Assembly: GCA_964016885.1 (NCBI GenBank)
Contig: OZ024740.1
Location: forward strand, 249,240,001 to 249,304,000
DNA length: 64,000 nt
Reading direction: 5' to 3'
Origin: Eledone cirrhosa
Taxonomy: Eukaryota
Part shown: positions 13,455-63,900 of the stretch, in pieces
Position numbering within the stretch: the stretch's first letter is position 1
How the letters are laid out: every line of letters starts with the position of its first letter
Made by a program: the position numbers and the translations under genes
Notes under the pieces: model-generated
Told to the model about the DNA's origin: nothing
What the model saw: the letters and a program-made list of their open reading frames with translations, nothing else
Databases searched by the model: none

Positions 13455-15770
13455 AGTGGTCGGACAGTATGATACAAAGGCGTCACACACATCTTCAGTA
13501 CTTTCATGGTTTAATATACCTGAAAAAAATAAATCTAGATTCACTCAATTCAATTTAGTAGACTTCTACCCTTCTATAACTCAATCCTTATTAGCCAAAG
13601 CATTAGAATTCACTAAAAATTACACTAATATATCCAATTTAGAAAAGGAAGTAATTTTACATTCCCGGAAAACTCTAGTTTTTGCCAAAATGAAACTTGG
13701 GTAAAAAAATCAAACCCAGAAAACCCTTTTGATGTCTCTATGGGTTTCTTTGACAGTGCCGATGTGTGTGATTTGGTCAACTTGTTCCTTCTACACGCAA
13801 TAAAAGAAAAATTCACAAATCATACTATTGAGTTATATCAAGACGACGGACTAGCAGTCTCTCATACCACCAATGGCCATGACCTCGACACTTTTCTTAA
13901 AGATTTAACTAAAAATTTTTCTGACCTAAATCTTAAAATTACTATAGATACTAATCTTACCAACGTAAATTTCCTTGATATAAATCTTGACTTACTGCTT
14001 CATTTAAACCTTACCATAAACCTAATGAGAATCTAAAATATATAAATAAGCAGTCATGCCACCCCGCCATAGTATTTAAAAACCTCATCCCTAATATTAG
14101 TTGTAGGATATCTACACTCTCTTCTTCTGAAGAAATATTTAATAAAGCAGCCCTTTACTATAATAAGGCCCTTTAAAATAGCGGATTCACTGAACAAATT
14201 AAATATATTTCTAACCCCTCTAAACATAATAATAGGAAAAGAAAAATAATCTGGTTCACACCACCCTTCTCTTTAGCACTCAAAACTAATGTAGGTAGAA
14301 AGTTCCTTGAATTAGTAGATAAACATTTCCCCCATCACCATAAATATAACAAAATTTTTAACAGAAACTGTGTCAAGATTAGCTATCCTTGTAGTGCTTC
14401 CATAAAATCTAAGATCACCACCGGAAAAACTGACAGAGGAATCCCAGGATGTTCATGCAGAAATGCAGGAGAATGTCCTTTTCAAAGCAAATGCAGCATC
14501 AAATCCATTGTATATGAGGCAATTATAAAGCCTATTAACACCAACCAACCTTCTGCTGGAGAAGGTTATGTGGGTATGACTCAAGATACCTTTAAAAAAA
14601 GATACTATGCACATGTCGCTTCCTTTCGACACCAGGATAAAAAGAAAACTACAGCGCCGGCAAATAGAGTGAGAGAGATGAAAGAGCATGGGATCTCATA
14701 TAAAATTGATTGGTCTATTTTAGACCAATCAAAATAATATGTTAAAGGCACAAGAAGGTGTACCTTGTAACAGAAAATTATAGAATTCTACAAAATCTGA
14801 AATCTCCCAACACCTGTCTTAACTCTAATTCTGAAATATTTAACATTTACATTACTCTATATTTATTATTGTATTTTCATGGTAAACATAATTATCTCAT
14901 ATAATATCGAATCTACGAGATTCTGATATTATTTATTTTGAGAACAATACCTTAACATAAGTATGAGTGGCCAGTTACAACTGGTTTCAACAGAAAGAGG
15001 TGAACAAATTCTGGCCGGTTATGGCCGGTTTAAATTTGCCCACAGATAAGAACACATCTCCTTTCTTGGTATCAAAATACCATTTTGGACACTTATCCAC
15101 CTTGAACACTCTTACTTTATATATCTTGGACCTTTATCACACATTCAACACTTATCTTATATTATGCCTTGAACACCCTCTCTTACTTTAAACACTCCGG
15201 ACCTTCATCACACATTCAACACTTATCTTATATTACACCCTTATTTTATATTACACCTATTTTATTCATTTCCTTTATTTTACCTTGAACACACTATCTT
15301 ATTTTATCACGAACACTTTCTCTTATTTTAAACACCATTTTTACACGTTCAACACTTATTTTATTTTATTCTATTTTACACTTATATTATTCACTTATTG
15401 ACTTCATCTTTTCCTGAACACTCTCTCTTATTTTAACCACCCTGGCCCTTTACCACATACTTTCAACACTTATTTTATTTTATATTACACCTATTTTATC
15501 CATTTCTTCATTTACTTTGACCTTGAACACTATCTCTTATTTAAAACACCCTGCACTTTTTTACATATTCAACACTTTATTTTATTTTATAATATTCAAC
15601 ACTTTATTTTACATATTCAACACTTTATTTTATTTTATTTTATTTTACACTTATATTATTCACTTATTGGCTTTATCATTTCCTCAACATTCTCCCTTTA
15701 TCACATACATTCAACACTTATTTTATACCAGTTATATTTTTATTTTTCACTCATTTACTGAGTCTTCTTA
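13455..15770 (+). mobile_element. Penelope-like element (RT plus GIY-YIG), degenerate, with AT-rich repetitive 3' region
   Basis: VDFYPSI, FDVSMGFFDSADVCDLV, LYQDDGL, VNFLDI, then CSCRNAGECPF...IVYEA...YVGMT...FKKRY. Confidence 0.88.
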
Positions 15771-38130: not shown

Positions 38131-40366
38131 CTAGCAGATTTACCCGGCGTTGTTTGGGGGTTTGAAATTATGCTAAGAATATACAGCTAGGAAGTAAAAG
38201 AAGAACATTATTTGTCCCCAACCTGTCAAAATCAGCAGAAGTCTTCAATAATTAATGCAAACGAATATTTAGTGCAATCTTTGTACACACAAAACTATGC
38301 TGATAATGAAGGAAAACACTGAACAGGATGTAGTTATACAAATGATTAAAGACAATACACGTTGCAAATCTGTAAAATAAACAGGCAGTTTTGCTAAAGT
38401 ACAAAAAGTTGTAATGAAAGCAGAGCTGTATACAAACCAAAAAACAATGAGAGTAGAATAAGAGAAAATCTATTCTTGGAGAGCATCCTTTGCTGTGTAT
38501 GGTTAAATTTTTAACTTATAATCCAAAATATCCTGCATGACATATTCATTGGTATGTTTTGTAATGAGTAAAGTGAAGTCAAGGCAGAGCTGTAATAAAT
38601 TTTTTTGTTAACACTAAAGCACTTCAGGATAGATGATATTCTTTGTTTTTCTTTTCGGAACAAACGCAAAGAGATTTTCTCGACTACCAACTCGTGAGCA
38701 GGCAACATAGAATTGTCCGTGCGAAAAGCAAGGTTCATCCAAGTGAATTCCAGCGATGGATAGAGTTTGACCTTGCGACTTGTGTATGGACATCGCAAAG
38801 GCAACACGAAGGGGAAATTGGGTTCGGTGAAAGGAGAAGGAAGTATCCACGCCTGATGTAGTCAGGCTAATTTTTTTTATTATCACATCCTCGCCTTTTC
38901 CATATCCGGATAGAATGGTAGCGTCAATACTAAGTGGAGACAGTTTTTTAACCTCAAGGCGTGTACCATTGCATAGTTTTGGAGGAGTGATATTTCTCAG
39001 CAAAATAACTGGTGTTCCCTCTTTCAGAACCAATGTATTAGGGGGTAAACCAGGAGGATTTAAAGAATTTAGAAATTCAACTGGATAATTGACCGCATCC
39101 TGTGGATCACATACAGTATCAATAGTGCTATATATCCGTGGACATCCAGGAAGCAGCTGAAGAAGCTGATCGTTAATACAGCTAACCGTGATATTTTGGG
39201 GTGCAAGAATGGCTCTTTCGCATAGCCAATCAAGATTTGTATAGTTATCACGCAAGTTCGGGAATACACTTGCCTTGAGATCATCGACAGTTTCAACTAC
39301 ATTGCAGATGTGATCAATTGCTATGTGTCCATCTGTATCCGGAGGTAGGTTACCATCTCCTATTGTAAGAATGTCTCCAGAAAATGTTGATGACAGAGGG
39401 TCCCCATGCAACCTTGCACGCATGTTGGTAGTTAGTCTTAATGATGTCACTTGTCGCCACAATGGTGAAGACTTAAGACATGCATTTACCGCATCTGCTC
39501 TTGTTCCTTTCGGTATTATCGGAAGAGTCTGTCTGAAGTCTCCTGAAAGCAGAAGGGTGACACCCTCCATAACATCACTGCAATTCCGTATGTCTTGCAA
39601 AGACCTGTCTAGTGTCTCAAGAGCACTTTTGTGCGCCATTGTGCACTCATCCGAAACAATAAGGTGACACCTTCGCAGCAGATGAGCCCTTTCGGAGTCT
39701 TTGGTGATATGACAAGTAGGAGTTTCCAATTCTGCCAAATCAAGGGGCAATTTAAAAACTGAATGTGCCGTCCTTCCACCAGGGAGCAAAGTTGCTGCCT
39801 TTCATATTTTTGTACTGTCTCTGCAGATCTTGCTGCAGCAGTATCTGTAGCATCCACAGCAAGGCGTGTTTCCCGTTGCTCTGTAGTCTCTGCAGCTCGT
39901 GCTGCAGCAGTTGCTTTAGCATTATTGGTTCGCCGCACTAACCGACGCTCAGCGGCGGACAAAGATGTTGCAATAACTGTACTCACCGCATTTAGTGATT
40001 GTCTATTTTCGGTTATCGGCGGAGCGTCATTTACACGCATTGTTTTCTTCGACCGATAGCCAATATGTGCATACTTTCTTTTACGGGGCATATTTAGTGA
40101 AAAGGTTATCTCCCTTTTTTATAAGGATTGTCAATAAAGTTTGTTATCTCCCTTACATCAATTTTTCTACCGATAATTTTGATATCGAATTTTTATTGCT
40201 CAACGTGGGTCGATTTGAAAAATGTTTGTGATGTGACAATCTTAGCGACCTGTGCAACGTGCACAGAAAATTGTCAAATTCAGTTGGTAATTGTGAAAGC
40301 TTTATGCATGCCAAGTTGTACACAGACACACACACACACACATCCTCGCTTTTATATATATAAAGA
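38131..40366 (-). mobile_element. Internally deleted Helitron with both termini
   Basis: Minus strand starts A|TCTTTATATATATAAAAG and ends ccccaaacaacgccgggtaaatctgCTAG|T. The N-terminal ORF (MPRKRK, RAAETTEQRETRL) abuts the helicase; no Rep domain. Confidence 0.9.
38614..39789 (-). CDS. Helitron PIF1-family helicase C-terminal portion (open frame, lacks Walker A)
   Basis: GGRTAHS, DECTM, GDFRQTLP, LTTNMR, LCNGTRL, FAMSIHKSQGQTL and HGQFYVACSRV. Confidence 0.85.
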   Translation of the reverse strand: MLPGGRTAHSVFKLPLDLAELETPTCHITKDSERAHLLRRCHLIVSDECTMAHKSALETLDRSLQDIRNCSDVMEGVTLLLSGDFRQTLPIIPKGTRADAVNACLKSSPLWRQVTSLRLTTNMRARLHGDPLSSTFSGDILTIGDGNLPPDTDGHIAIDHICNVVETVDDLKASVFPNLRDNYTNLDWLCERAILAPQNITVSCINDQLLQLLPGCPRIYSTIDTVCDPQDAVNYPVEFLNSLNPPGLPPNTLVLKEGTPVILLRNITPPKLCNGTRLEVKKLSPLSIDATILSGYGKGEDVIIKKISLTTSGVDTSFSFHRTQFPLRVAFAMSIHKSQGQTLSIAGIHLDEPCFSHGQFYVACSRVGSRENLFAFVPKRKTKNIIYPEVL

Positions 40367-40717
40367 TATCAAAATGCGAACGAAACCCAAGGGTAGGGAA
40401 TTGATCCTGGTATGTATATAAGCATTTCTAACTTTAATTTTATACCTAATTGTGTATGGTTGACCGTATATTTAATCAATTTCCACGTGCTGTTGAAATG
40501 TTAGATAAATACTCTATGGCGGTTGACCGCGAAGAGGCTGCTATCGTTTATTTATTTACTGATTCTTCATAGGTGCCTTTTATTCTTATAGCCTGGTCTA
40601 ATTGATTTTTTGTGTGGTTAATTATGCTAATTGGGGGAAGAAATGGCGTATATATATTATCAAATGATTCTATGGACATACTTTATAGTATATATATATA
40701 TATATATATCTACACAT

Positions 40718-40765
<48 letters not shown>

Positions 40766-41062
40766 TGAAACAAAATGAAAACGAAATTTCATTTCTCACT
40801 CTTAGTATGGCACTTACTTAAATGTAAGTATGCATGTATACGTACATACATATATGTATACAGACGTACAGTAGCATGCACATATATATATATATATACA
40901 TATATACATACATATGCATAGAGGTACACATACATATATGCACGTATCAGTTTAGCGGCGCTAACGTCGCTTTGTTCGTTTGTAAACAAACTGAACAGCC
41001 TGAATTTATGCCATACGGTGTTAAGGCAACCACGTCACCTTTTTGTTCAACACTGACACAGG

Positions 41063-41107
41063 AACGATGTACTAGTTTCAAGCTTGTTAGCTATCATCAG
41101 CACCGTT
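41063..41107 (-). ncRNA. Type I hammerhead ribozyme (array unit)
   Basis: aacggtg CTGATGA t AGCT aaca AGCT t GAAA ctag TA catcgtt. Confidence 0.88.
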
Positions 41108-41528
41108 TACCCATCTGCCAGATAGTTGAACGTTCGAAAGTATATACTTTCCTTATGAAAATTAACGGCTGAGCAGCCTAATTTGCATATTGAGTGAGTA
41201 AAATCGGTCAGGCATACCGAAAACGATAAATTGAAACAAAATGAAAACGAAATTTCATTTCTCACTCTTAGTATGGCACTTACTTAAATGTAAGTATGCA
41301 TGTATACGTACATACATATATGTATACAGACGTACAGTAGCATGCACATATATATATATATATACATATATACATACATATGCATAGAGGTACACATACA
41401 TATATGCACGTATCAGTTTAGCGGCGCTAACGTCGCTTTGTTCGTTTGTAAACAAACTGAACAGCCTGAATTTATGCCATACGGTGTTAAGGCAACCACG
41501 TCACCTTTTTGTTCAACACTGACACAGG

Positions 41529-41573
41529 AACGATGTACTAGTTTCAAGCTTGTTAGCTATCATCAGCACCGTT
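41529..41573 (-). ncRNA. Type I hammerhead ribozyme (array unit)
   Basis: Same motif, 466 bp further. Confidence 0.88.
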
Positions 41574-41994
41574 TACCCATCTGCCAGATAGTTGAACGTT
41601 CGAAAGTATATACTTTCCTTATGAAAATTAACGGCTGAGCAGCCTAATTTGCATATTGAGTGAGTAAAATCGGTCAGGCATACCGAAAACGATAAATTGA
41701 AACAAAATGAAAACGAAATTTCATTTCTCACTCTTAGTATGGCACTTACTTAAATGTAAGTATGCATGTATACGTACATACATATATGTATACAGACGTA
41801 CAGTAGCATGCACATATATATATATATATACATATATACATACATATGCATAGAGGTACACATACATATATGCACGTATCAGTTTAGCGGCGCTAACGTC
41901 GCTTTGTTCGTTTGTAAACAAACTGAACAGCCTGAATTTATGCCATACGGTGTTAAGGCAACCACGTCACCTTTTTGTTCAACACTGACACAGG

Positions 41995-42039
41995 AACGAT
42001 GTACTAGTTTCAAGCTTGTTAGCTATCATCAGCACCGTT
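41995..42039 (-). ncRNA. Type I hammerhead ribozyme (array unit)
   Basis: Same motif. Confidence 0.88.
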
Positions 42040-42728
42040 TACCCATCTGCCAGATAGTTGAACGTTCGAAAGTATATACTTTCCTTATGAAAATTAACGG
42101 CTGAGCAGCCTAATTTGCATATTGAGTGAGTAAAATCGGTCAGGCATACCGAAAACGATAAATTGAAACAAAATGAAAACGAAATTTCATTTCTCACTCT
42201 TAGTATGGCACTTACTTAAATGTAAGTATGCATGTATACGTACATACATATATGTATACAGACGTACAGTAGCATGCACATATATATATATATATACATA
42301 TATACATACATATGCATAGAGGTACACATACATATATGCACGTATCAGTTTAGCGGCGCTAACGTCGCTTTGTTCGTTTGTAAACAAACTGAACAGCCTG
42401 AATTTATGCCATACGGTGTTAAGGCAACCACGTCACCTTTTTGTTCAACACTGACACAGGAACGATGTACTAGTTTCAAAGCGACGTTAGCGCCGCTAAA
42501 CTGATACGTGCATATATGTATGTGTACCTCTATGCATATGTATGTATATATGTATATATATATATATATGTGCATGCTACTGTACGTCTGTATACATATA
42601 TGTATGTACGTATACATGCATACTTACATTTAAGTAAGTGCCATACTAAGAGTGAGAAATGAAATTTCGTTTTCATTTTGTTTCAATTTATCGTTTTCGG
42701 TATGCCTGACCGATTTTACTCACTCAAT

Positions 42729-42736
42729 ATGCAAAT
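42729..42736 (+). promoter_or_regulatory. Octamer motif ATGCAAAT, one per full unit, about 75 nt upstream of the hammerhead
   Basis: Exact octamer in each full unit, also kept in the diverged copy (63891-63898, minus strand). Function is inferred. Confidence 0.5.
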
Positions 42737-42809
42737 TAGGCTGCTCAGCCGTTAATTTTCATAAGGAAAGTATATACTTTCGAACGTTCAACTATCTGGC
42801 AGATGGGTA

Positions 42810-42854
42810 AACGGTGCTGATGATAGCTAACAAGCTTGAAACTAGTACATCGTT
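42810..42854 (+). ncRNA. Type I hammerhead ribozyme (array unit), predicted cleavage after 42847
   Basis: Stem I aacggtg/catcgtt, core CTGATGA and GAAA, stem II AGCT/AGCT, palindromic stem III ACTAGT, GUA triplet. Confidence 0.88.
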
Positions 42855-43275
42855 CCTGTGTCAGTGTTGAACAAAAAGGTGACGTGGTTGCCTTAACACC
42901 GTATGGCATAAATTCAGGCTGTTCAGTTTGTTTACAAACGAACAAAGCGACGTTAGCGCCGCTAAACTGATACGTGCATATATGTATGTGTACCTCTATG
43001 CATATGTATGTATATATGTATATATATATATATATGTGCATGCTACTGTACGTCTGTATACATATATGTATGTACGTATACATGCATACTTACATTTAAG
43101 TAAGTGCCATACTAAGAGTGAGAAATGAAATTTCGTTTTCATTTTGTTTCAATTTATCGTTTTCGGTATGCCTGACCGATTTTACTCACTCAATATGCAA
43201 ATTAGGCTGCTCAGCCGTTAATTTTCATAAGGAAAGTATATACTTTCGAACGTTCAACTATCTGGCAGATGGGTA

Positions 43276-43320
43276 AACGGTGCTGATGATAGCTAACAAG
43301 CTTGAAACTAGTACATCGTT
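43276..43320 (+). ncRNA. Type I hammerhead ribozyme (array unit)
   Basis: Same motif. Confidence 0.88.
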
Positions 43321-43741
43321 CCTGTGTCAGTGTTGAACAAAAAGGTGACGTGGTTGCCTTAACACCGTATGGCATAAATTCAGGCTGTTCAGTTTGTTTA
43401 CAAACGAACAAAGCGACGTTAGCGCCGCTAAACTGATACGTGCATATATGTATGTGTACCTCTATGCATATGTATGTATATATGTATATATATATATATA
43501 TGTGCATGCTACTGTACGTCTGTATACATATATGTATGTACGTATACATGCATACTTACATTTAAGTAAGTGCCATACTAAGAGTGAGAAATGAAATTTC
43601 GTTTTCATTTTGTTTCAATTTATCGTTTTCGGTATGCCTGACCGATTTTACTCACTCAATATGCAAATTAGGCTGCTCAGCCGTTAATTTTCATAAGGAA
43701 AGTATATACTTTCGAACGTTCAACTATCTGGCAGATGGGTA

Positions 43742-43786
43742 AACGGTGCTGATGATAGCTAACAAGCTTGAAACTAGTACATCGTT
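43742..43786 (+). ncRNA. Type I hammerhead ribozyme (array unit)
   Basis: Same motif. Confidence 0.88.
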
Positions 43787-45019
43787 CCTGTGTCAGTGTT
43801 GAACAAAAAGGTGACGTGGTTGCCTTAACACCGTATGGCATAAATTCAGGCTGTTCAGTTTGTTTACAAACGAACAAAGCGACGTTAGCGCCGCTAAACT
43901 GATACGTGCATATATGTATGTGTACCTCTATGCATATGTATGTATATATGTATATATATATATATATGTGCATGCTACTGTACGTCTGTATACATATATG
44001 TATGTACGTATACATGCATACTTATATATATATATATATACACATAAGATACACACACACACAAAAAACATCAAGGATATGAAATTATTTTTTCTTTCAT
44101 TTCTATGCAAGTTTCAATACGGCTAAAATATCACATCCATTTGCAGAACTGGAAATTATCAGTTAAAACTAAGGACGATAATGTGCTTCTTTCATCTTAG
44201 CAAAGAAAATAATCACATATCTTATATATACATCGGGAGTGTCATGGTTCTTTCAGTTTTATGCAGAAAGGTGGCTCAAATGTGTATGTTTAAAGTATAA
44301 TTTAATAGGCTGAGGATGATCAAGTGATTAGGCAACAAACATGCCCTCTAAATTCAAGGTTTTCCTACTATACCATTGTCCAGTTAATGCCACAGATCAA
44401 ACACAAATAAATAAAATAAATATATTTATTCAAAAATACAAACCAGTCTGAATAAACTCTAACTACCCACCGACACACCACACATAACATTCTTCACCTT
44501 GTTAATAGAATTATCATCATTATTATTATTATTGCCATTATTATTTTATCACATGACCCTCTGTACCCAGGTGGAGAAGGGAATAAATTGACATTGCTAC
44601 ACACTTACAAACACAATCACCACATAGGAATAAATAAAAGAAAATATATTTATTCAAAATAAAGACAATATATTTGTGCACCCAGCTACTTACTGAATCA
44701 TCACAACCCAACAAACATATGCACTCACATACACACACACATACAATTCTTATTCATTTTGCTGATTGGATCATTACTATTATAGTTGTCATTATGATGG
44801 TGACTGTAATGGTAATAATTATTATTATTTTTTTTGTTGTTATTCAGATGTAGCAGGAAACAAATAAACTAACTACACACAAACACAAAATTCCTGCTTT
44901 TGAATTTTGGAGATTGCCGCAAAGACAATACCAGCTTCCCTTGACTATTGAACATACGAAAAACAGACATGAATTGCCACTATCTAAACTAAGGCATATA
45001 TAATATATACATGTATTAT

Positions 45020-50374: not shown

Positions 50375-52303
50375 GATTAGGCTGCTCTCACCATTGAGTA
50401 TCTCGAGGGTCTCACTCAGACATAGGTTGCAGATGCCAGATCCCCCTCTATCAGGTGGCACTTTCCTGATTTTGGACCAGGCCAGAGAGTACGGGTCCTG
50501 TCCAGCTTGAGCTTCCAGATCAGTTTGGAAAGAGCCGTACTTTTCCTTTTGCTCTCCCTTTTGCCCGTTGATGTGGGTCCTATGTAAAGTTGCTCAGAGT
50601 TGGGGGTTTTTACTCTACATCTGTATACTAGGTTCTTCAGGAGGCATTCATTACTAAGGGGGCATAATGTGGGGGTTCTGCAGTCGCAGGTGGTCGACCC
50701 CTGAGTGCCTAAGTGGGGTTCCCTTTGCGTAGTATAGGGTGATCTGCCCCTGGGTCTGTTTGGGTTCCCAGGGTGGGTACCGGGTCCACCATTCCTTCTC
50801 TCCACATGGCTCTGATGGGGGCTTATATTGCCAGCTGCTTGTTGTGTGTAGTTTCTAAGTCTACTCCTATTGATGCTAGCTATGTGCTGGGCTATGTTGC
50901 GCATGGTAGAGTACAAGAGCTTCACCGTGTCTGTTGAAGAGCTTGTCTTATCTGTGGTCCCTCGGGAAGTATTTATCTAGTGCCCTAAAGAATGACTGGG
51001 CCAGGCGCGTCTTTAGGCCCGCTGAGTAGGGTGAGTTGTACCACGTAATTTTTCTTGGTCTATTCCTATGTGGGTGGGTTGAGCATGTTGTGGGCTGTTG
51101 GGGAGTTGTTGGGTTGCTACCGGTTCCCGCATTGTTGTTTCCCCTTTGGGCGCTATATGTTTTGCTAGCTTCTCAGCCCGTACCTGTGGGGTGGTGTGTG
51201 CCCACGCTGAGAGTTCTACAATGGGATGATTCTCCATCAGTCCTGCTTCGTGTCTTGCGGTTGGGGGCGTCGGGCCCGGGGTGGTTAGTATAACACCTGA
51301 GACTGCCTTGCGTACTGGATTTCCTCTCATGGCTAGGCGTATGCGTCCTTTTCTCTAATGTGGTGGTGCCGGGTTCATGGGGTTTAGTGGGTTCCACTCT
51401 GCCTGTACTGTTAGGGTTAACCTCCCTCCCAGATACAGTGGGTCAGGGAGTCTGATGGTCTATCCCTATCATGGCGCCTCGGGTTGTAAGATATAGTTTG
51501 GCCATGGGCCGCCTTATTTAGAGCTGCGTTATAATGCTCTGCATTGCTATCGAAGATCTCCTTATTGGCGGAAAGGTTGGAGATCCTGTCCGAGACACTC
51601 TTGACTACGGCCTTAATTATGGATCTAGGGTGGTTTGACTTAGCGTTAACATATGCCAGTTTCGCGTTGGGTTTATGATAGGGGTAGTATTGCTGTGTTC
51701 AGGTTTAGGGTGGTGTCTAGGAAGTTAACTACCTTTCTATTGGGGTCTAATTCAATACTGAGCCCATGGTTCCTAAAGAAATGCCTAATTCGCTTCTTCA
51801 TTCTCTCCACCATAGTGGTGCTGTGGTCATAGATGGTGAAGAGAGCATCATCACAATACAATCTGCCGCGTAGGCAGGGGATTTCATCTTTTATCTGCTT
51901 TAGCAGGAAGAGCCTGACCCAGTCCATTACCTGCGCAGAGTCGCTGGAGCCCATCGTGATGTGAAAGTTATGTGGCCAATCACTCCTGGTCCAAGGTCTT
52001 TCGGGCAGCGTGGATGATGCCTACCTCCTCACGGGTTAGGTCTGTATTGGACATCGCCTTATTAACTACTATGGGCGAGACAGAGGAGTAGTAGCCAGCA
52101 ATATCCAGTTGGATATCAAAATTTTTGATATTGGTTGTAACACACACGCATTCTCTTTATTTGTTTGGCATCCCCCACCATGTGAAATGGAGGCAGGATA
52201 GATGCCAACCTACACGCATAAATTCTTCAGACCATAACGATGTATTGACAGAGTGAAACACACTTCAACAACATGTGTACTTGTCTTTTCCACACCAATT
52301 CGG

Positions 52304-54862: not shown

Positions 54863-57800
54863 TAATCGGGGCTGCCAGACGAACTTAAGGATAGGTTTTA
54901 CGAGTCCCTAATACACACTACTGCTCTAACAGACGACAAGGACTTCCTAATCATTGCAGGAGATTTTAACGGACACGTAGGTAAACACTGCGACGGCTTC
55001 AATAGAGTACATGGAGGCCATGGAGTTGGCACAAGGAATGAGGAAGGATTCAGACTTCTAGAATTCTGCGACACCAATGACATGTCGATATGTAACACAA
55101 ACTTTAAAAAACCCGACAACCACCTGATCACCTATAGATCAGGGGAGCACTCTAGTCAGTTAGATTTTATCCTCATCAGAGGACGTGACAGATGGACGGT
55201 CGTAAACACAAAAGCCTTCCCTAGTGAGGAATGTACATCCCAACATAGCTTAGTTGTCAGCGACCTCACGGTCAGAACTAGACGAGCCCTGAAACAGAGG
55301 CCAACCTGGAGAAGAAAGATCTGGAAGCTGAAAGTCCCCTCAACCAGTAACAGATTTAAAGATATTTTACTCAACGCCTACGACAGTAAAGAAGAACAGA
55401 TAGAGACATTTAACGTAGAAGAGAACTGGGAGTTCCTAAAAAATAACTTACTAGAGGCGACGGATGAGGTTTGTGGCTGGAGTAAGACCTCAAGCAGGAG
55501 GAGAGTGACTTGGTGGTGGAACAATAAGGTAGATGAAGCAGTCAAGGCCAAGAGACAGGCATGGAAAGAATGGAAGAACGGGGGGAGCAGGGTACATTAC
55601 ATAGAGACCAAGAGGGAAGCTAGGCGACAAGTATACTTAGCTAGGAGGGAAGCAGAGGATAGGAAATTCAAGCATGTTTTACAACGTGAGGACCAGAAAC
55701 AGGAGGTATTCAAGATTGCGAGGCAGTGTGTCAGAGATAGTTGTGATGTCATTGGAGAGAAGTGTATCCGGAATGATAAAGGTGAGCTTGCCCTCACAAG
55801 TGCTGAGAAGAAAGATGCATGGAAGAGTCATTATGATAGATTACTAAATGAGGAGAATGCATGGGAAGAAGAGACCCTACCCCACGTAGACCCTATAGAG
55901 GGACCAGCAGTACAAGTCAGCGGCAGCGTAGTAAGTAAGGCAATCAGAGATATGAAGATAGGGAAGGCAACCGGTCCATCGGGTATAGCTGCCGAGATGC
56001 TGAAGGCATCTGGGTCTGTAGGTCACACTATAACCACACGTATTGTTAACCAGGTAATACTAGAGGGGGCCATACCAAAAGATTGGTGCAGTAGCATCAT
56101 TGTCAACTGCTACAAAGGTAAAGGCGATGCACTAGATAGAGGAAACTATAGAGGTATAAAGTTGATGGACCAGGTCATGAAAGTAACAGAAAGAGTTATA
56201 GCACAGCTGATTAGGGACCGGGTGAATATAGACGAGATGCAATTTGGGTTTGTTCCAGGGAAAGGCACCACTGATGCGCTCTTCCTTGTGAGGCAATTAC
56301 AGGAAAAGTACCTAGCTAAAAGTAAGCCACTCTACTTGGCATTTGTCGACCTTGAGAAAGCCTTTGACAGAGTTCCACGTGCAGTAATCTGGTGGGCTCT
56401 TAGAAAACTAGGAGTAGATGAATGGCTTGTGAAAGCGGTACAAGCCATGTATAGGGGAGCAGTCAGCAAAGTTAGGATTGGCAATGAGTATAGCGAGGAA
56501 TTTAGCGTACAGGTTGGGGTCCACCAGGGCTCTGTTCTTAGCCCTCTCCTGTTCATCATAGTCCTGCAGGCAATAACGGAGGAGTTTAAGACCGGATGCC
56601 CATGGGAACTCCTGTATGCTGATGACCTCGCACTCATAGCTGAATCTATGGTAGAACTAGAGAATAAATTCCAAACCTGGAAGCAGGGACTAGAGAGAAA
56701 GGGCCTCAAAGTCAACATTACAAAGACTAAGGTCCTTATAAGTAGACGAGAAAACAGTACCCAGATCCCCTCAGGGAAATGGCCTTGCTCAGTATGTAGG
56801 AAAGGTGTAGGTAGGAACTCCATTCTTTGCCCCAAATGCAAACAATGGGTACACAAGAGATGTAGCGGGATCTCAGGAAGCTTAATTAAGAATGTAGGAT
56901 TCACATGCAGCAGCTGTGCTGAAACAGCAAGCAAACAGCCACAGGAAACAAGTACCACCAATCTCTGGGAGGGCCCTGTAGAAACAGTAGACAGCTTCTG
57001 CTACCTAGGTGACCGAATTAGCAACGGAGGTGGGTGCTCAGAAAGTACAATAACTAGGGTAAGAACGGGATGGAAGAAGTTTAGGGAACTACTACCACTG
57101 CTAGCTGCAAAAGGCTTCTCCCTCAGAATGAAAGGCAGACTGTATGATGCGTGTATCCGAACAGCGATGTTGCATGGTAGTGAGACCTGGGCGCTGAAGG
57201 TGGAAGACTTACGTAGATTAGAGAGAAACGAAGCCTGCATGCTCCGATGGATGTGTAACAGTAATATACGTGAACGACAAAGCATAAATGAATTGAGAGA
57301 GAGACTGAGCATAAGAGGAATCAAATGCTGCGTGCAGGAGAGGCGGTTACGCTGGTATGGACATGTGATGCGTATGAAGGATGACAGCTGCATAAAAAGG
57401 TGCAGAGCACTAGAAGTTGATGGAAACCGCGGAGTGGGGAGACCCAAGATGACTTGGGATGAGGTGATAAAAGCCGACCTTACCCAACTACACCTCTCAA
57501 AGTCAATGACACACGACCGTGACTTCTGGCGTCACGCAGTAATACAGGGTACCCGACCTCCCATGGGTACATGCTGAAGCATATAAACAATATGCCCCCC
57601 CCCCCCACCGCAAGGTGGTCGTGGAGGTGCCACGGCAAAAAAGCACCCAGCCCACACTGTAAAGTGGACGTGTAGGCGCCACGAAAAAGCACCCAGCACT
57701 CACTGTAAATGAGGTTGGTGTTAGGAAGGGCATCCAGCTGTAGAAATCAAGCCAGATCAGTTCCTGTATGAGCAAGGCATGGTCAGCCGACCAGACACTG

Positions 57801-62223: not shown

Positions 62224-63560
62224 ACTCCTATACGCAGATGATCTAACGCTCATAGCTGAATCAATGGCCGACCTAGAGAAGAAATTCCAAACATGGAAGC
62301 ATGGCCTAGAATCAAAAAGGCTTAAAATTAACCTGGCTAAGACTAAAGTTCTAATTTGTAGGAAAGAAAATAAGGCGACGGTCCCTTCCGGGAAATGGCC
62401 ATGCTCAGTGTGTAGGAAAGGAGTAGGTAGAAACTCCATTTTATGTCCCAAATGCAAAGTATGGGTGCATAAAAGATGTAGTGCGATCACAGGTAAGCTA
62501 ACTAAGAACATAAATTTTACATGTGGCCGGTGCTCTGGTGCAATAAGTAGCAGCAAGTGCCCACAAAATACTAGCTCTTTCAATTGCGCAGAGGGTTCTA
62601 TAGAAATAGTGGACAGCTTCCGCTACCTGGGTGACAAAATCAGCAGTGGGGGAGGGTGCTTTGAAAGTACAGTAGCTAGAGTCAGAACTGGATGGAAAAA
62701 GTTCAGAGAGCTTATACCACTATTAGTCGCTAAAGGGTTTTCCCTAAAAATGAAAGGCAGGTTCTATGATGCCTGCATACGAACAGCAATGTTGCATGGC
62801 AGTGAGACCTGGGCATTGTGTGCAGAGGATATACACAGACTAGAGAGGAACGAAGCTTGCATGCTCCGCTGGATGTGTAATAGTAACATACGTGAACGGC
62901 AAAGCATAAGCGAACTAAGGAAAAAATTAGAAATAAGAGGGATCAGATGTTGTTTACTCGAGAGAAGGCTACGTTGGTATGGTCACGTGATGCGCATGAA
63001 AGACGACAGCTGTATAACAAAGTGCAGGGCAATAAAGATAGACGGTAGCTACGGAGTAGGCAGACCCAGAAAAACCTGGGACGAGCTGATAAATTCCGAC
63101 CTCACACACTTACACCTCTCCAAGACAATGTCACTGGACCGAGACCTTTGGCAGTAATAGAGAAGACCCGCCTTACCTAAATACAAAGTAAAACCTACTA
63201 CAGTCAGTAGGCATCTCTAAAATACACCCCCGTACCACCACCCCCACCCCATCCACACCGCCCCTTTCAATGTAAAGTTTTGTTGGTGCCACAACATCCA
63301 GGCCAAAACAAATGAGATCGTGTAGGTGTCACGACAAAAAAACACACAGTCCACGCTGTAATGTGGCCGTGTAGGCAACACGGTAAAAACCTCCCAGCCC
63401 CACACTGTAAATGTGGTTGGTGTTAGGAAGGGCATCCAGCTGTAGAAAACACGCCAGACAGTCCTATGCGAGCAAGACAATCACCCTTGCCTCAAGTGGG
63501 AAAACCCCCGTCCAAACCCATGCAATAGTGGAACACGGACGTTAAACGTTGATGATGATA
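62224..63560 (+). mobile_element. RTE LINE family B, 5'-truncated
   Basis: Starts at LLYADD; ORF 62264-63157; full 3' UTR and tail. Confidence 0.93.
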
Positions 63561-63569
63561 CATATATAT

Positions 63570-63900
63570 AAGTATGTATACGTACATACATATATATATA
63601 CAGACGTACAGTAGTATGTATATATATATACATACATGCACACATATATATATGCACGTATGGATTCACCGAACATTTATTATAATGCTCGGTGTGTCTG
63701 TAAACAAACATCCCGTATTAAGCCGTAGTGTCTAGCAACCATCGTTGCTCGTTTGTTCAACACTGACAAAGGAACGCTGTACTAGTTTCAAGCTTATTAG
63801 CTATCGTCAGCAACGTATACCTTCCTGCCAGATGATTGAACGTCTGAAAGTATATACTTTCTTTATGCATATTAATGGCTGAGCAGCCTAATTTGCATAT
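63570..63900 (-). repeat. Diverged solo copy of the 466-bp array unit
   Basis: Shares cagacgtacagtag, tttgttcaacactgaca, tgtactagtttcaagctt, gaaagtatatactttc and gctgagcagcctaatttgcatat. Confidence 0.9.
63774..63816 (-). ncRNA. Type I hammerhead ribozyme, variant of the array motif
   Basis: acgttg CTGACGA t AGCT aata AGCT t GAAA ctag TA cagcgt. Confidence 0.85.

Follow-up and report, generated by a model that had tools for sequence, protein, structure and literature searches.

Retrozymes and Penelope-like elements

The non-long terminal repeat (non-LTR) retrozymes of metazoans, described from axolotl (Rtz_353/HHR_Amex2), Mytilus and Acropora, are short non-coding tandem units of ~170–400 nt that each carry a type I hammerhead ribozyme, and they have thousands of copies, a low GC content and a structured monomer (Cervera and de la Pena, 2020; PMC7229834; this paper and PMC7761336, PMC8557442, PMC2220036 and PMC4209133 are cited here in part). 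A family that is alike in all these properties is found in Eledone cirrhosa, in a 64,000-nucleotide stretch termed the window (NCBI GenBank assembly GCA_964016885.1, contig OZ024740.1, positions 249,240,001 to 249,304,000 of the forward strand). Its unit, at 466 nt, is longer. An initial annotation, made from the sequence without database searches, had proposed a retrozyme copied by a reverse transcriptase (RT) of a Penelope-like element (PLE). On balance, the family appears to be a non-LTR retrozyme that inserts into (TA)n as two arms, with a Penelope-like RT/endonuclease likely priming on both target strands from one RNA that is probably circular.

PLE insertions are characterized by partial tandems, an inverted 5′-truncated copy, a tail of 30–40 bp that is often one-sided, and a bias toward (TA)n, which in Neptune elements is attributed to a CX2-5CxxC linker (PMC8557442). 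Purified anole PLE protein, a predicted dimer, nicks and extends both strands of AT-rich DNA (PMC11167929). Reverse transcription starts at two internal sites downstream of the hammerhead; these sites delimit the tail and showed no strand difference (PMC11167929). Non-autonomous PLEs of Chlamys, such as MRC1, resemble the Eledone family in being non-coding PLE derivatives with multicopy head-to-tail insertions (PMC8557442).

Dependence of retrozymes on PLEs was proposed in 2020 and argued in 2026 through co-occurrence and similarity to PLE pseudo-LTRs (pLTRs). The latter study derives Xenopus retrozymes from PLE pLTRs, makes the case for animal retrozymes as non-autonomous derivatives of PLEs and prefers local amplification as the origin of arrays; tails, inverted arms and promoters are unmentioned in its main text (bioRxiv 10.64898/2026.07.22.740005). 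The Xenopus case rests on co-occurrence and pLTR similarity, whereas the evidence for the Eledone family is an insertion footprint, and pLTR homology was not found in 46 loci.

The inverted array

The repeat period at 40760..44024 is 466 bp and the units are 100% identical, as stated in the initial annotation, which had counted ~7 of them. The array is not a single tandem run, however, but two arrays of opposite orientation. This inversion had been overlooked and is judged to be the most informative feature of the locus. The array consists of the following parts, in which 'tail' and 'short' designate two types of 3′ end.

40684..40759, unstranded: (TA)n tract adjoining the left 3′ end, inferred target
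40760..42479, minus strand: left arm, 3.69 units; its 3′ end at 40760 is a tail end, 310 nt past the cut site
42477..42479, unstranded: head-to-head junction, CAA, a 3-nt microhomology common to both arms
42477..44024, plus strand: right arm, 3.32 units; its 3′ end at 44024 is a short end, 245 nt past the cut site
44025..44039, unstranded: (TA)n tract adjoining the right 3′ end, inferred target

The 5′ end of the left arm falls in stem II of a hammerhead, the seventh, that is truncated at the junction. Both ends of the array lie within (TA)n, a sequence in which a target-site duplication is unreadable. Later inversion of a single array was rejected as an origin, the breakpoints failing to join in unit coordinates. 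RNA reading through the inverted insertion (40760-44024) would form a perfect duplex of ~1.5 kb, on which RNA silencing or editing would be likely to act.

The looped 466-bp unit has no frame longer than 114 codons in any reading frame, which bears out its description as non-coding. Unit positions are numbered from the first base past the predicted cut (window 42848 is position 1), and one unit is laid out as follows.

42848..43313, plus strand: cut-to-cut monomer of 466 nt, predicted RNA
42968..43085, plus strand: long AU-rich hairpin with an internal TA tract
43087..43105, plus strand: small predicted hairpin; its loop, 43092-43095, is the short end point and putative RT start site 1
43096..43157, plus strand: 62-nt tail separating both end points, with putative RT start site 2 at its final base

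The fold of the monomer has a z-score of -7.76 and none of 100 shuffles (0/100) is equally stable; the AU-repeat hairpin contributes part of this.

Paired insertion ends

The two end types recur throughout the family. In the first 11 loci compared, every 3′ end lies at unit position 245–248 or 309–310 and adjoins (TA)n, and all seven inverted loci among them (7/7) carry one end of each type. When these 11 near-identical loci are taken together with the first 55 on C1 from the core-pattern list described below, 43 of the 66 are inverted and 23 single-armed. Both outer ends are resolved in 31 of the 43 inverted loci, and the combination is short plus tail in every case (31/31). The other 12 were dropped as having an outer end broken by an insertion, beyond the fetched stretch or ambiguous (L041, L070, L072, L077, L078, L081, L085, L086, L089, L100, L103 and L106).

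In an independent sample, selected through the ends alone, the young subfamily has 838 tail and 909 short ends across the genome. Over the part of C1 that extends to 345 Mb, where 90 tail and 100 short ends were listed, neighbouring ends at most 10 kb apart form 56 pairs; all (56/56) are outward-facing short plus tail and none are alike. The median span is 1.3 kb and the longest is 8.5 kb. The window array, L094 and L099 are common to the 31-locus and 56-pair sets. The two end points are 62–65 nt apart in the window family, and the short one maps to the loop of the small predicted hairpin. A sister family, also described below, has short plus tail in 9/9 resolved loci, with a tail of 71–74 nt. 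This strict one-of-each pairing is likely to be a PLE insertion signature.

The 5′ ends behave differently. Their positions in 30 multi-hammerhead arms show no departure from uniform (Kolmogorov–Smirnov p 0.37). Arm junctions mostly overlap by 0–4 nt, and a few show an overlap of 10–18 nt or filler. Single-arm copies exist with each of the two end types, and in inverted copies the longer arm may be the short-end or the tail-end one. Classical twin priming of the L1 type, which would use a linear RNA that has a genuine 3′ end, was discarded as an explanation: it predicts that the 5′ end of the tail arm lies beside position 249, whereas the observed tail-arm ends are scattered (455, 212, 405–425, 382, 10, 4 and 68).

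Insertions that are mostly inverted and two-armed, with two fixed ends in (TA)n, are unmentioned in the main text of PMC7229834. More broadly, no inverted arms or paired ends are described for retrozymes in the literature covered, which did not extend to Arkhipova (2006), Evgen'ev and Arkhipova (2005), Repbase or the supplement of PMC7229834. The class of element is known; what is new, as far as checked, is that the ends pair strictly one of each type, that an insertion carries a single haplotype and that the unit has a promoter-like block.

One haplotype per insertion

The arms of one locus differ by 1.0% in a set of 28 inverted loci whose arms overlap sufficiently, compared with a median of 3.5% to the arms of other loci, and locus-private variants are common to both arms in 12 of the 28. 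In four of the longest young insertions (~11, 12, 18 and 18 units), a single haplotype extends over both arms in every case (4/4), and the only departures are single-unit changes and changes in TA-tract length. In the sister-family locus L218, 13/13 units are identical. A single haplotype per insertion fits rolling copying of one monomeric circle, although a homogeneous linear multimer would give the same result. Given PLE mobilization, a circular template is favoured to a moderate degree only. In another sister-family locus, L220 (G000:C1:14042500-14052400), alternate units share substitutions in a higher-order pattern, which is due to local duplication or to a multi-unit template.

The hammerhead ribozyme

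Six complete hammerhead motifs had been noted in the array, and all are located, each of 45 nt and three per strand (+42810, +43276, +43742, -41063, -41529 and -41995). The predicted cuts on the plus strand fall after 42847, 43313 and 43779.

42786..42872, plus strand: type I hammerhead, its stem I extended and bulged; core at 42817-42847, with the cut predicted after 42847
43276..43320, plus strand: second hammerhead, predicted cut after 43313
43742..43786, plus strand: third hammerhead, predicted cut after 43779
41063..41107, 41529-41573 and 41995-42039, minus strand: three hammerheads

Each 466-nt unit has the core CUGANGA ... GAAA ... UH with stems I, II and III. Folding of 42786-42872 yields the extended, bulged stem I that had been described by eye (-27.4 kcal/mol), and stem III is indeed the palindrome ACTAGT, for which ACUAGU self-pairing is computed at -6.8 kcal/mol. 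Where stem III consists of two pairs and a palindromic loop of 2 nt, cleavage is described as possible in multimers and avoided in monomeric circles (PMC4209133). The cleavage triplet is GUA in the window family, and GUU and GUC occur among relatives.

The window family lacks the G10.1-C11.1 closing pair and has U.U at the base of stem II. The initial annotation raised this as a caveat; the mismatch is confirmed, but its weight is lessened by the axolotl and sister-family ribozymes. The axolotl HHR_Amex2 shares the U.U. Its cleavage amounts to 22% in the monomer and is higher in the dimer, and it belongs to a repeat that yields circles (PMC7229834). In the sister family the pair is G-C, and its members are the 7 of 34 aligned sequences with G-C at 10.1/11.1.

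Comparison with the Rfam hammerhead models, the check first suggested for the motif, gives a match to Hammerhead_HH9 at all six places, but each is weak and below the gathering score (18.5 bits, E 0.86, gathering score 52); the other matches in the scan are AU-repeat microRNA noise. Rfam thus does not recognize the hammerhead, for which the evidence is the motif together with covariation. Across 34 core variants of both families, 86% of cells in stems I and II are paired, while slid-partner controls pair at 22–44%; two-sided changes number 38 cells compared with 13 in shuffles. The variants are related and were chosen by the core pattern, which partly builds in the invariance of the core, and the covariation therefore supports the stems more than the core. 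In contigs of another public run, which were not pattern-selected, 2/20 listed variant places are in the core; they fall at N7 and in loop II, where the hammerhead core is free to vary.

The window hammerheads are real motifs and self-cleavage is predicted. The window family has the sequence features of a non-LTR retrozyme except for G10.1-C11.1, with an Rfam score under threshold. The retrozyme reading has held up with respect to its non-coding tandem units, a hammerhead in each, many loci and a stable predicted monomer, and the sequence supports a functional-type retrozyme with high confidence.

A promoter-like block

Upstream of the hammerhead, both families carry a ATGCAAATTAG octamer, a AATTTTCATA stretch and a TATA-like box.

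43195..43244, plus strand: octamer at 43195-43205 and TATA-like box at 43237-43244, one per unit, resembling the U6 promoters of this genome

The octamer and the TATA-like box are each intact in 113/120 copies, and the arrangement arises in 15/20,000 shuffles of the unit. Three distinct U6 loci have the octamer or a one-base variant followed by a TATA at -30, in the same order as in the unit. The block is absent from the eight U5 loci examined. Among six U6atac loci, a promoter-like region upstream of the gene is confined to L227, where the octamer is degenerate. A comparison with the proximal sequence element found only a loose AATTTT resemblance in the unit. By analogy, a transcript is predicted to start near 43267, ~46 nt before the cut. 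U6 and U5 genes also form tandem clusters (G000:C19:31780605-31840331 and C9:32792224-32828232), and their upstream motifs visibly differ.

A 2020 review, in the part cited here, considers that metazoan retrozymes seem to have neither a promoter nor a motif that points to their mobilizer (PMC7761336), whereas the window family has a promoter-like block. In this it resembles the newt satellite 2 and schistosome Sm-alpha, which are hammerhead repeats with an internal promoter, of the small nuclear RNA (snRNA) type and read by polymerase II in the newt, and read by polymerase III in the schistosome (PMC2220036).

Penelope-like elements as candidate mobilizers

The genome has 10,596 GIY-YIG candidates, of which 150 were scored. 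Neptune-type PLEs are present, with RT, CX4CxxC and GIY-YIG, and one (L141) has an open frame of 938 codons. In 46 GIY-YIG loci (the 30 best and 16 with long frames), at least six PLE families are represented. Two genomic PLEs have end pairs ~62 and ~53 nt apart in (TA)n, and in both inverted PLE copies seen (L146 and L153; 2/2) a short end is paired with a tail-bearing arm. Retrozyme matches in L135, L151 and L152 represent separate retrozyme insertions beside PLEs.

The window family shares with Neptune-clade PLEs and the anole PAc Poseidon element a hammerhead upstream of two internal end points, a one-sided tail, an inverted 5′-truncated arm, an AT-rich or (TA)n target and a palindromic stem III (PMC8557442, PMC11167929). 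The tail is one-sided in 56/56 pairs, the inverted arm is present in 43/66 loci, and the target is (TA)n. In contrast to PLEs, the window family has no open reading frame, the whole element is the repeat unit, and the tail, with the sister family included, is 62–74 nt. Its hammerhead has full stems I and II compared with the minimal PLE form, and the unit has no sequence match to the sampled PLE termini of this genome. The original guess of a PLE reverse transcriptase has nonetheless fared well, given the fixed twin 3′ ends, the inverted arms and the (TA)n target, and PLE mobilization of the window retrozyme is quite probable.

The PLE families in this genome have hammerhead-like sequences of their own. 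The autonomous Neptune-type families F1 (L141, L142, L146, L150 and L152) and F2 (L147 and L154) show a degenerate motif with an ACCGGT palindrome near the 3′ end and no full core, and F3 has a minimal hammerhead with palindromic stems. Within the window, frames at 14177-14737 and 50416-50976 resemble fragments of the PLE endonuclease end by eye; that at 14177-14737 has no Pfam match.

Genomic copies and neighbouring elements

Copies of the unit number in the thousands. Exact matches to the core pattern total 12,259 across the 3.0-Gb genome, and those to its reversed control 0; the hammerhead core is therefore not a product of chance. A looser pattern that bars U at 10.1 adds 11,343 matches (control 12), mostly from the diverged sister family. 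This family, seen at G000:C1:5738326-5752444 and L158-L226, has 466–470-nt units with the canonical G10.1-C11.1 pair. Its stem II varies in a compensatory manner, and it has loop II and the ACTAGT stem III in common with the window family. Its inverted arrays reach 31+1 units. Older arrays of the window family differ from the window unit at 15–26 positions, and these differences are common to all units of each array. The opposite-strand joint of the window unit is also present in one contig of another public run.

One older copy lies within the window itself.

63559..63900, minus strand: single-arm copy of the family, ~76% identical, with one hammerhead and a short-type 3′ end near 63569

The internal TA tract (unit ~150–190) expands in older copies and hosts further insertions (L072, L078, L081, L086, L103 and L106); the retrozyme's expanding tract seeds new targets for its own kind. 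Other hammerhead-bearing non-coding repeats are found in the same (TA)n tracts, for example a tandem unit of ~300 nt in L078:2560-3800, with further sites in the flanks of L146, L150, L154, L120, L143 and L153 and at L072:2700. This suggests additional retrozyme families in this genome.

Other elements of the window include a PIF1 helicase frame at 38614-39801 (Pfam PF05970, PF21530), probably a Helitron remnant, which is 1 kb left of the array and shows no visible link to it. A 903-codon open frame at 54866-57577 belongs to an RT element resembling long interspersed nuclear elements, and many fragments of its family are scattered across the window, also beside TA tracts.

A proposed mechanism and its alternatives

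The sequence itself shows several features: a hammerhead motif that covaries, two arms, two end points that pair one of each, a (TA)n target and one haplotype per insertion. A mechanism that would accommodate them begins with an internal snRNA-type promoter, which would start a transcript ~46 nt before a hammerhead. Two hammerheads of one transcript would pair via the ACUAGU palindrome and excise the 466-nt monomer, and a host ligase would close it into a circle. With a stem III of two pairs and a 2-nt loop, the lone circle would escape renewed cutting. The tail segment would be bound by a PLE protein of the Neptune type, probably dimeric, which would nick both (TA)n strands, one cDNA starting at 310 and the other at 245–248. 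Each RT would continue over a variable number of units, and the cDNA ends would meet by short microhomology and template each other, to give an inverted two-arm insertion; where one arm is very short or absent, a single-arm copy would result. In this complete form, with a PLE RT dimer that uses two fixed sites of one self-promoting circular ribozyme RNA to prime the two nicked strands and rolls around it both ways, the proposal is tentative and falls a little short of an even chance.

A number of observations weigh against this proposal. The octamer-to-TATA spacing is 42 nt in the unit and 46–48 in U6, and five T4 runs in the unit are potential polymerase III stops. The 46 GIY-YIG loci, a small part of the 10,596 candidates, hold no autonomous PLE homologous to the unit, and the only shared words are chance ones of 12–17 nt. 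The retrozyme tail (62–74 nt in both families) exceeds the published 30–40 bp. The arms of L089 are no closer to each other than to those of other loci, and two long sister-family arrays share variants between non-adjacent units, which means that arrays also grow by recombination. Five of 30 arm 5′ ends lie inside the hammerhead, compared with 2.1 expected (p 0.065), and a few arms stop just past the cut site, at positions 4 (twice), 8 and 10. The stops near the cut and the hammerhead excess are hints of linear, cleaved templates.

These last points bear on the possibility that the element and its PLE twin priming are as proposed, with a long uncleaved linear multimer read from an array as template, the weak U.U hammerhead cutting rarely and circles a side product or absent. 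The stops at 4, 4, 8 and 10 resemble run-off at a cleaved 5′ end, and slow cleavage is to be expected from the U.U mismatch and a stem III of two pairs. Donor arrays can be long (31+1 units), and a homogeneous young donor would also yield a single haplotype per insertion. In addition, anole PLE insertion in vitro did not need hammerhead cleavage: it was unaffected by hammerhead mutants, and unprocessed RNA was the main substrate (PMC11167929). Yet the sister family, with its G-C pair, still produces arms in which 7 and at least 9 hammerheads are intact (L218), and the 5′ ends show no pile-up at the cut or the predicted start. The many distinct haplotypes, each fixed over the units of a locus, would require a one-unit bottleneck per lineage, and the core and stems are maintained under covariation. 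A linear template is accordingly considered unlikely, at roughly one chance in four.

Single priming is a weaker candidate. The second arm and the one-sided tail would arise by fold-back or template switching, followed by an endonuclease cut at the other site. One haplotype in both arms and one-of-each ends are predicted here as well, and the PLE tail has been ascribed to endonuclease-mediated resolution (PMC8557442). Later in vitro work, however, places both tail boundaries at RT start sites (PMC11167929). Furthermore, single-arm copies can have either end type alone, either arm can be the long one, and the 5′ ends of the two arms are unrelated in unit position, all of which make single priming improbable.

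TA-targeting DNA transposons have TA flanks and inverted ends, and palindromic artefacts occur in long-read assemblies. A DNA-level satellite, a fold-back repeat akin to miniature inverted-repeat transposable elements with a relic hammerhead, or an assembly artefact from fold-back reads is nevertheless very improbable and is largely refuted by the end statistics: despite the superficial likeness to such transposons and the low Rfam score, the termini are offset by 62–65 nt and are no mirror images, the 5′ ends are random, 23/66 loci are single arms and the ribozyme has compensatory changes, while an artefact would not produce short plus tail in 56/56 pairs or recur as the same opposite-strand joint in another public run.

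Implications

The findings speak to two questions about animal retrozymes, namely the identity of the enzyme that moves them and the role of the circle as template. The window family bears the PLE footprint itself, in numbers sufficient for statistics. To the in vitro work on PLEs it adds a rule that had not been resolved there, namely that each inverted insertion draws on both start sites, one for either target strand. Its 466-nt template has two mapped start sites, its young copies are identical, and the same genome holds Neptune ORFs (open reading frames) that may be intact; together these offer a small system for tests of twin priming and rolling-circle copying. If the proposed mechanism is true, twin-site priming would explain why PLE insertions have a tail at one end only. 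PLEs would then move animal retrozymes with the circle as template, and the Eledone genome would record thousands of products of single molecules.

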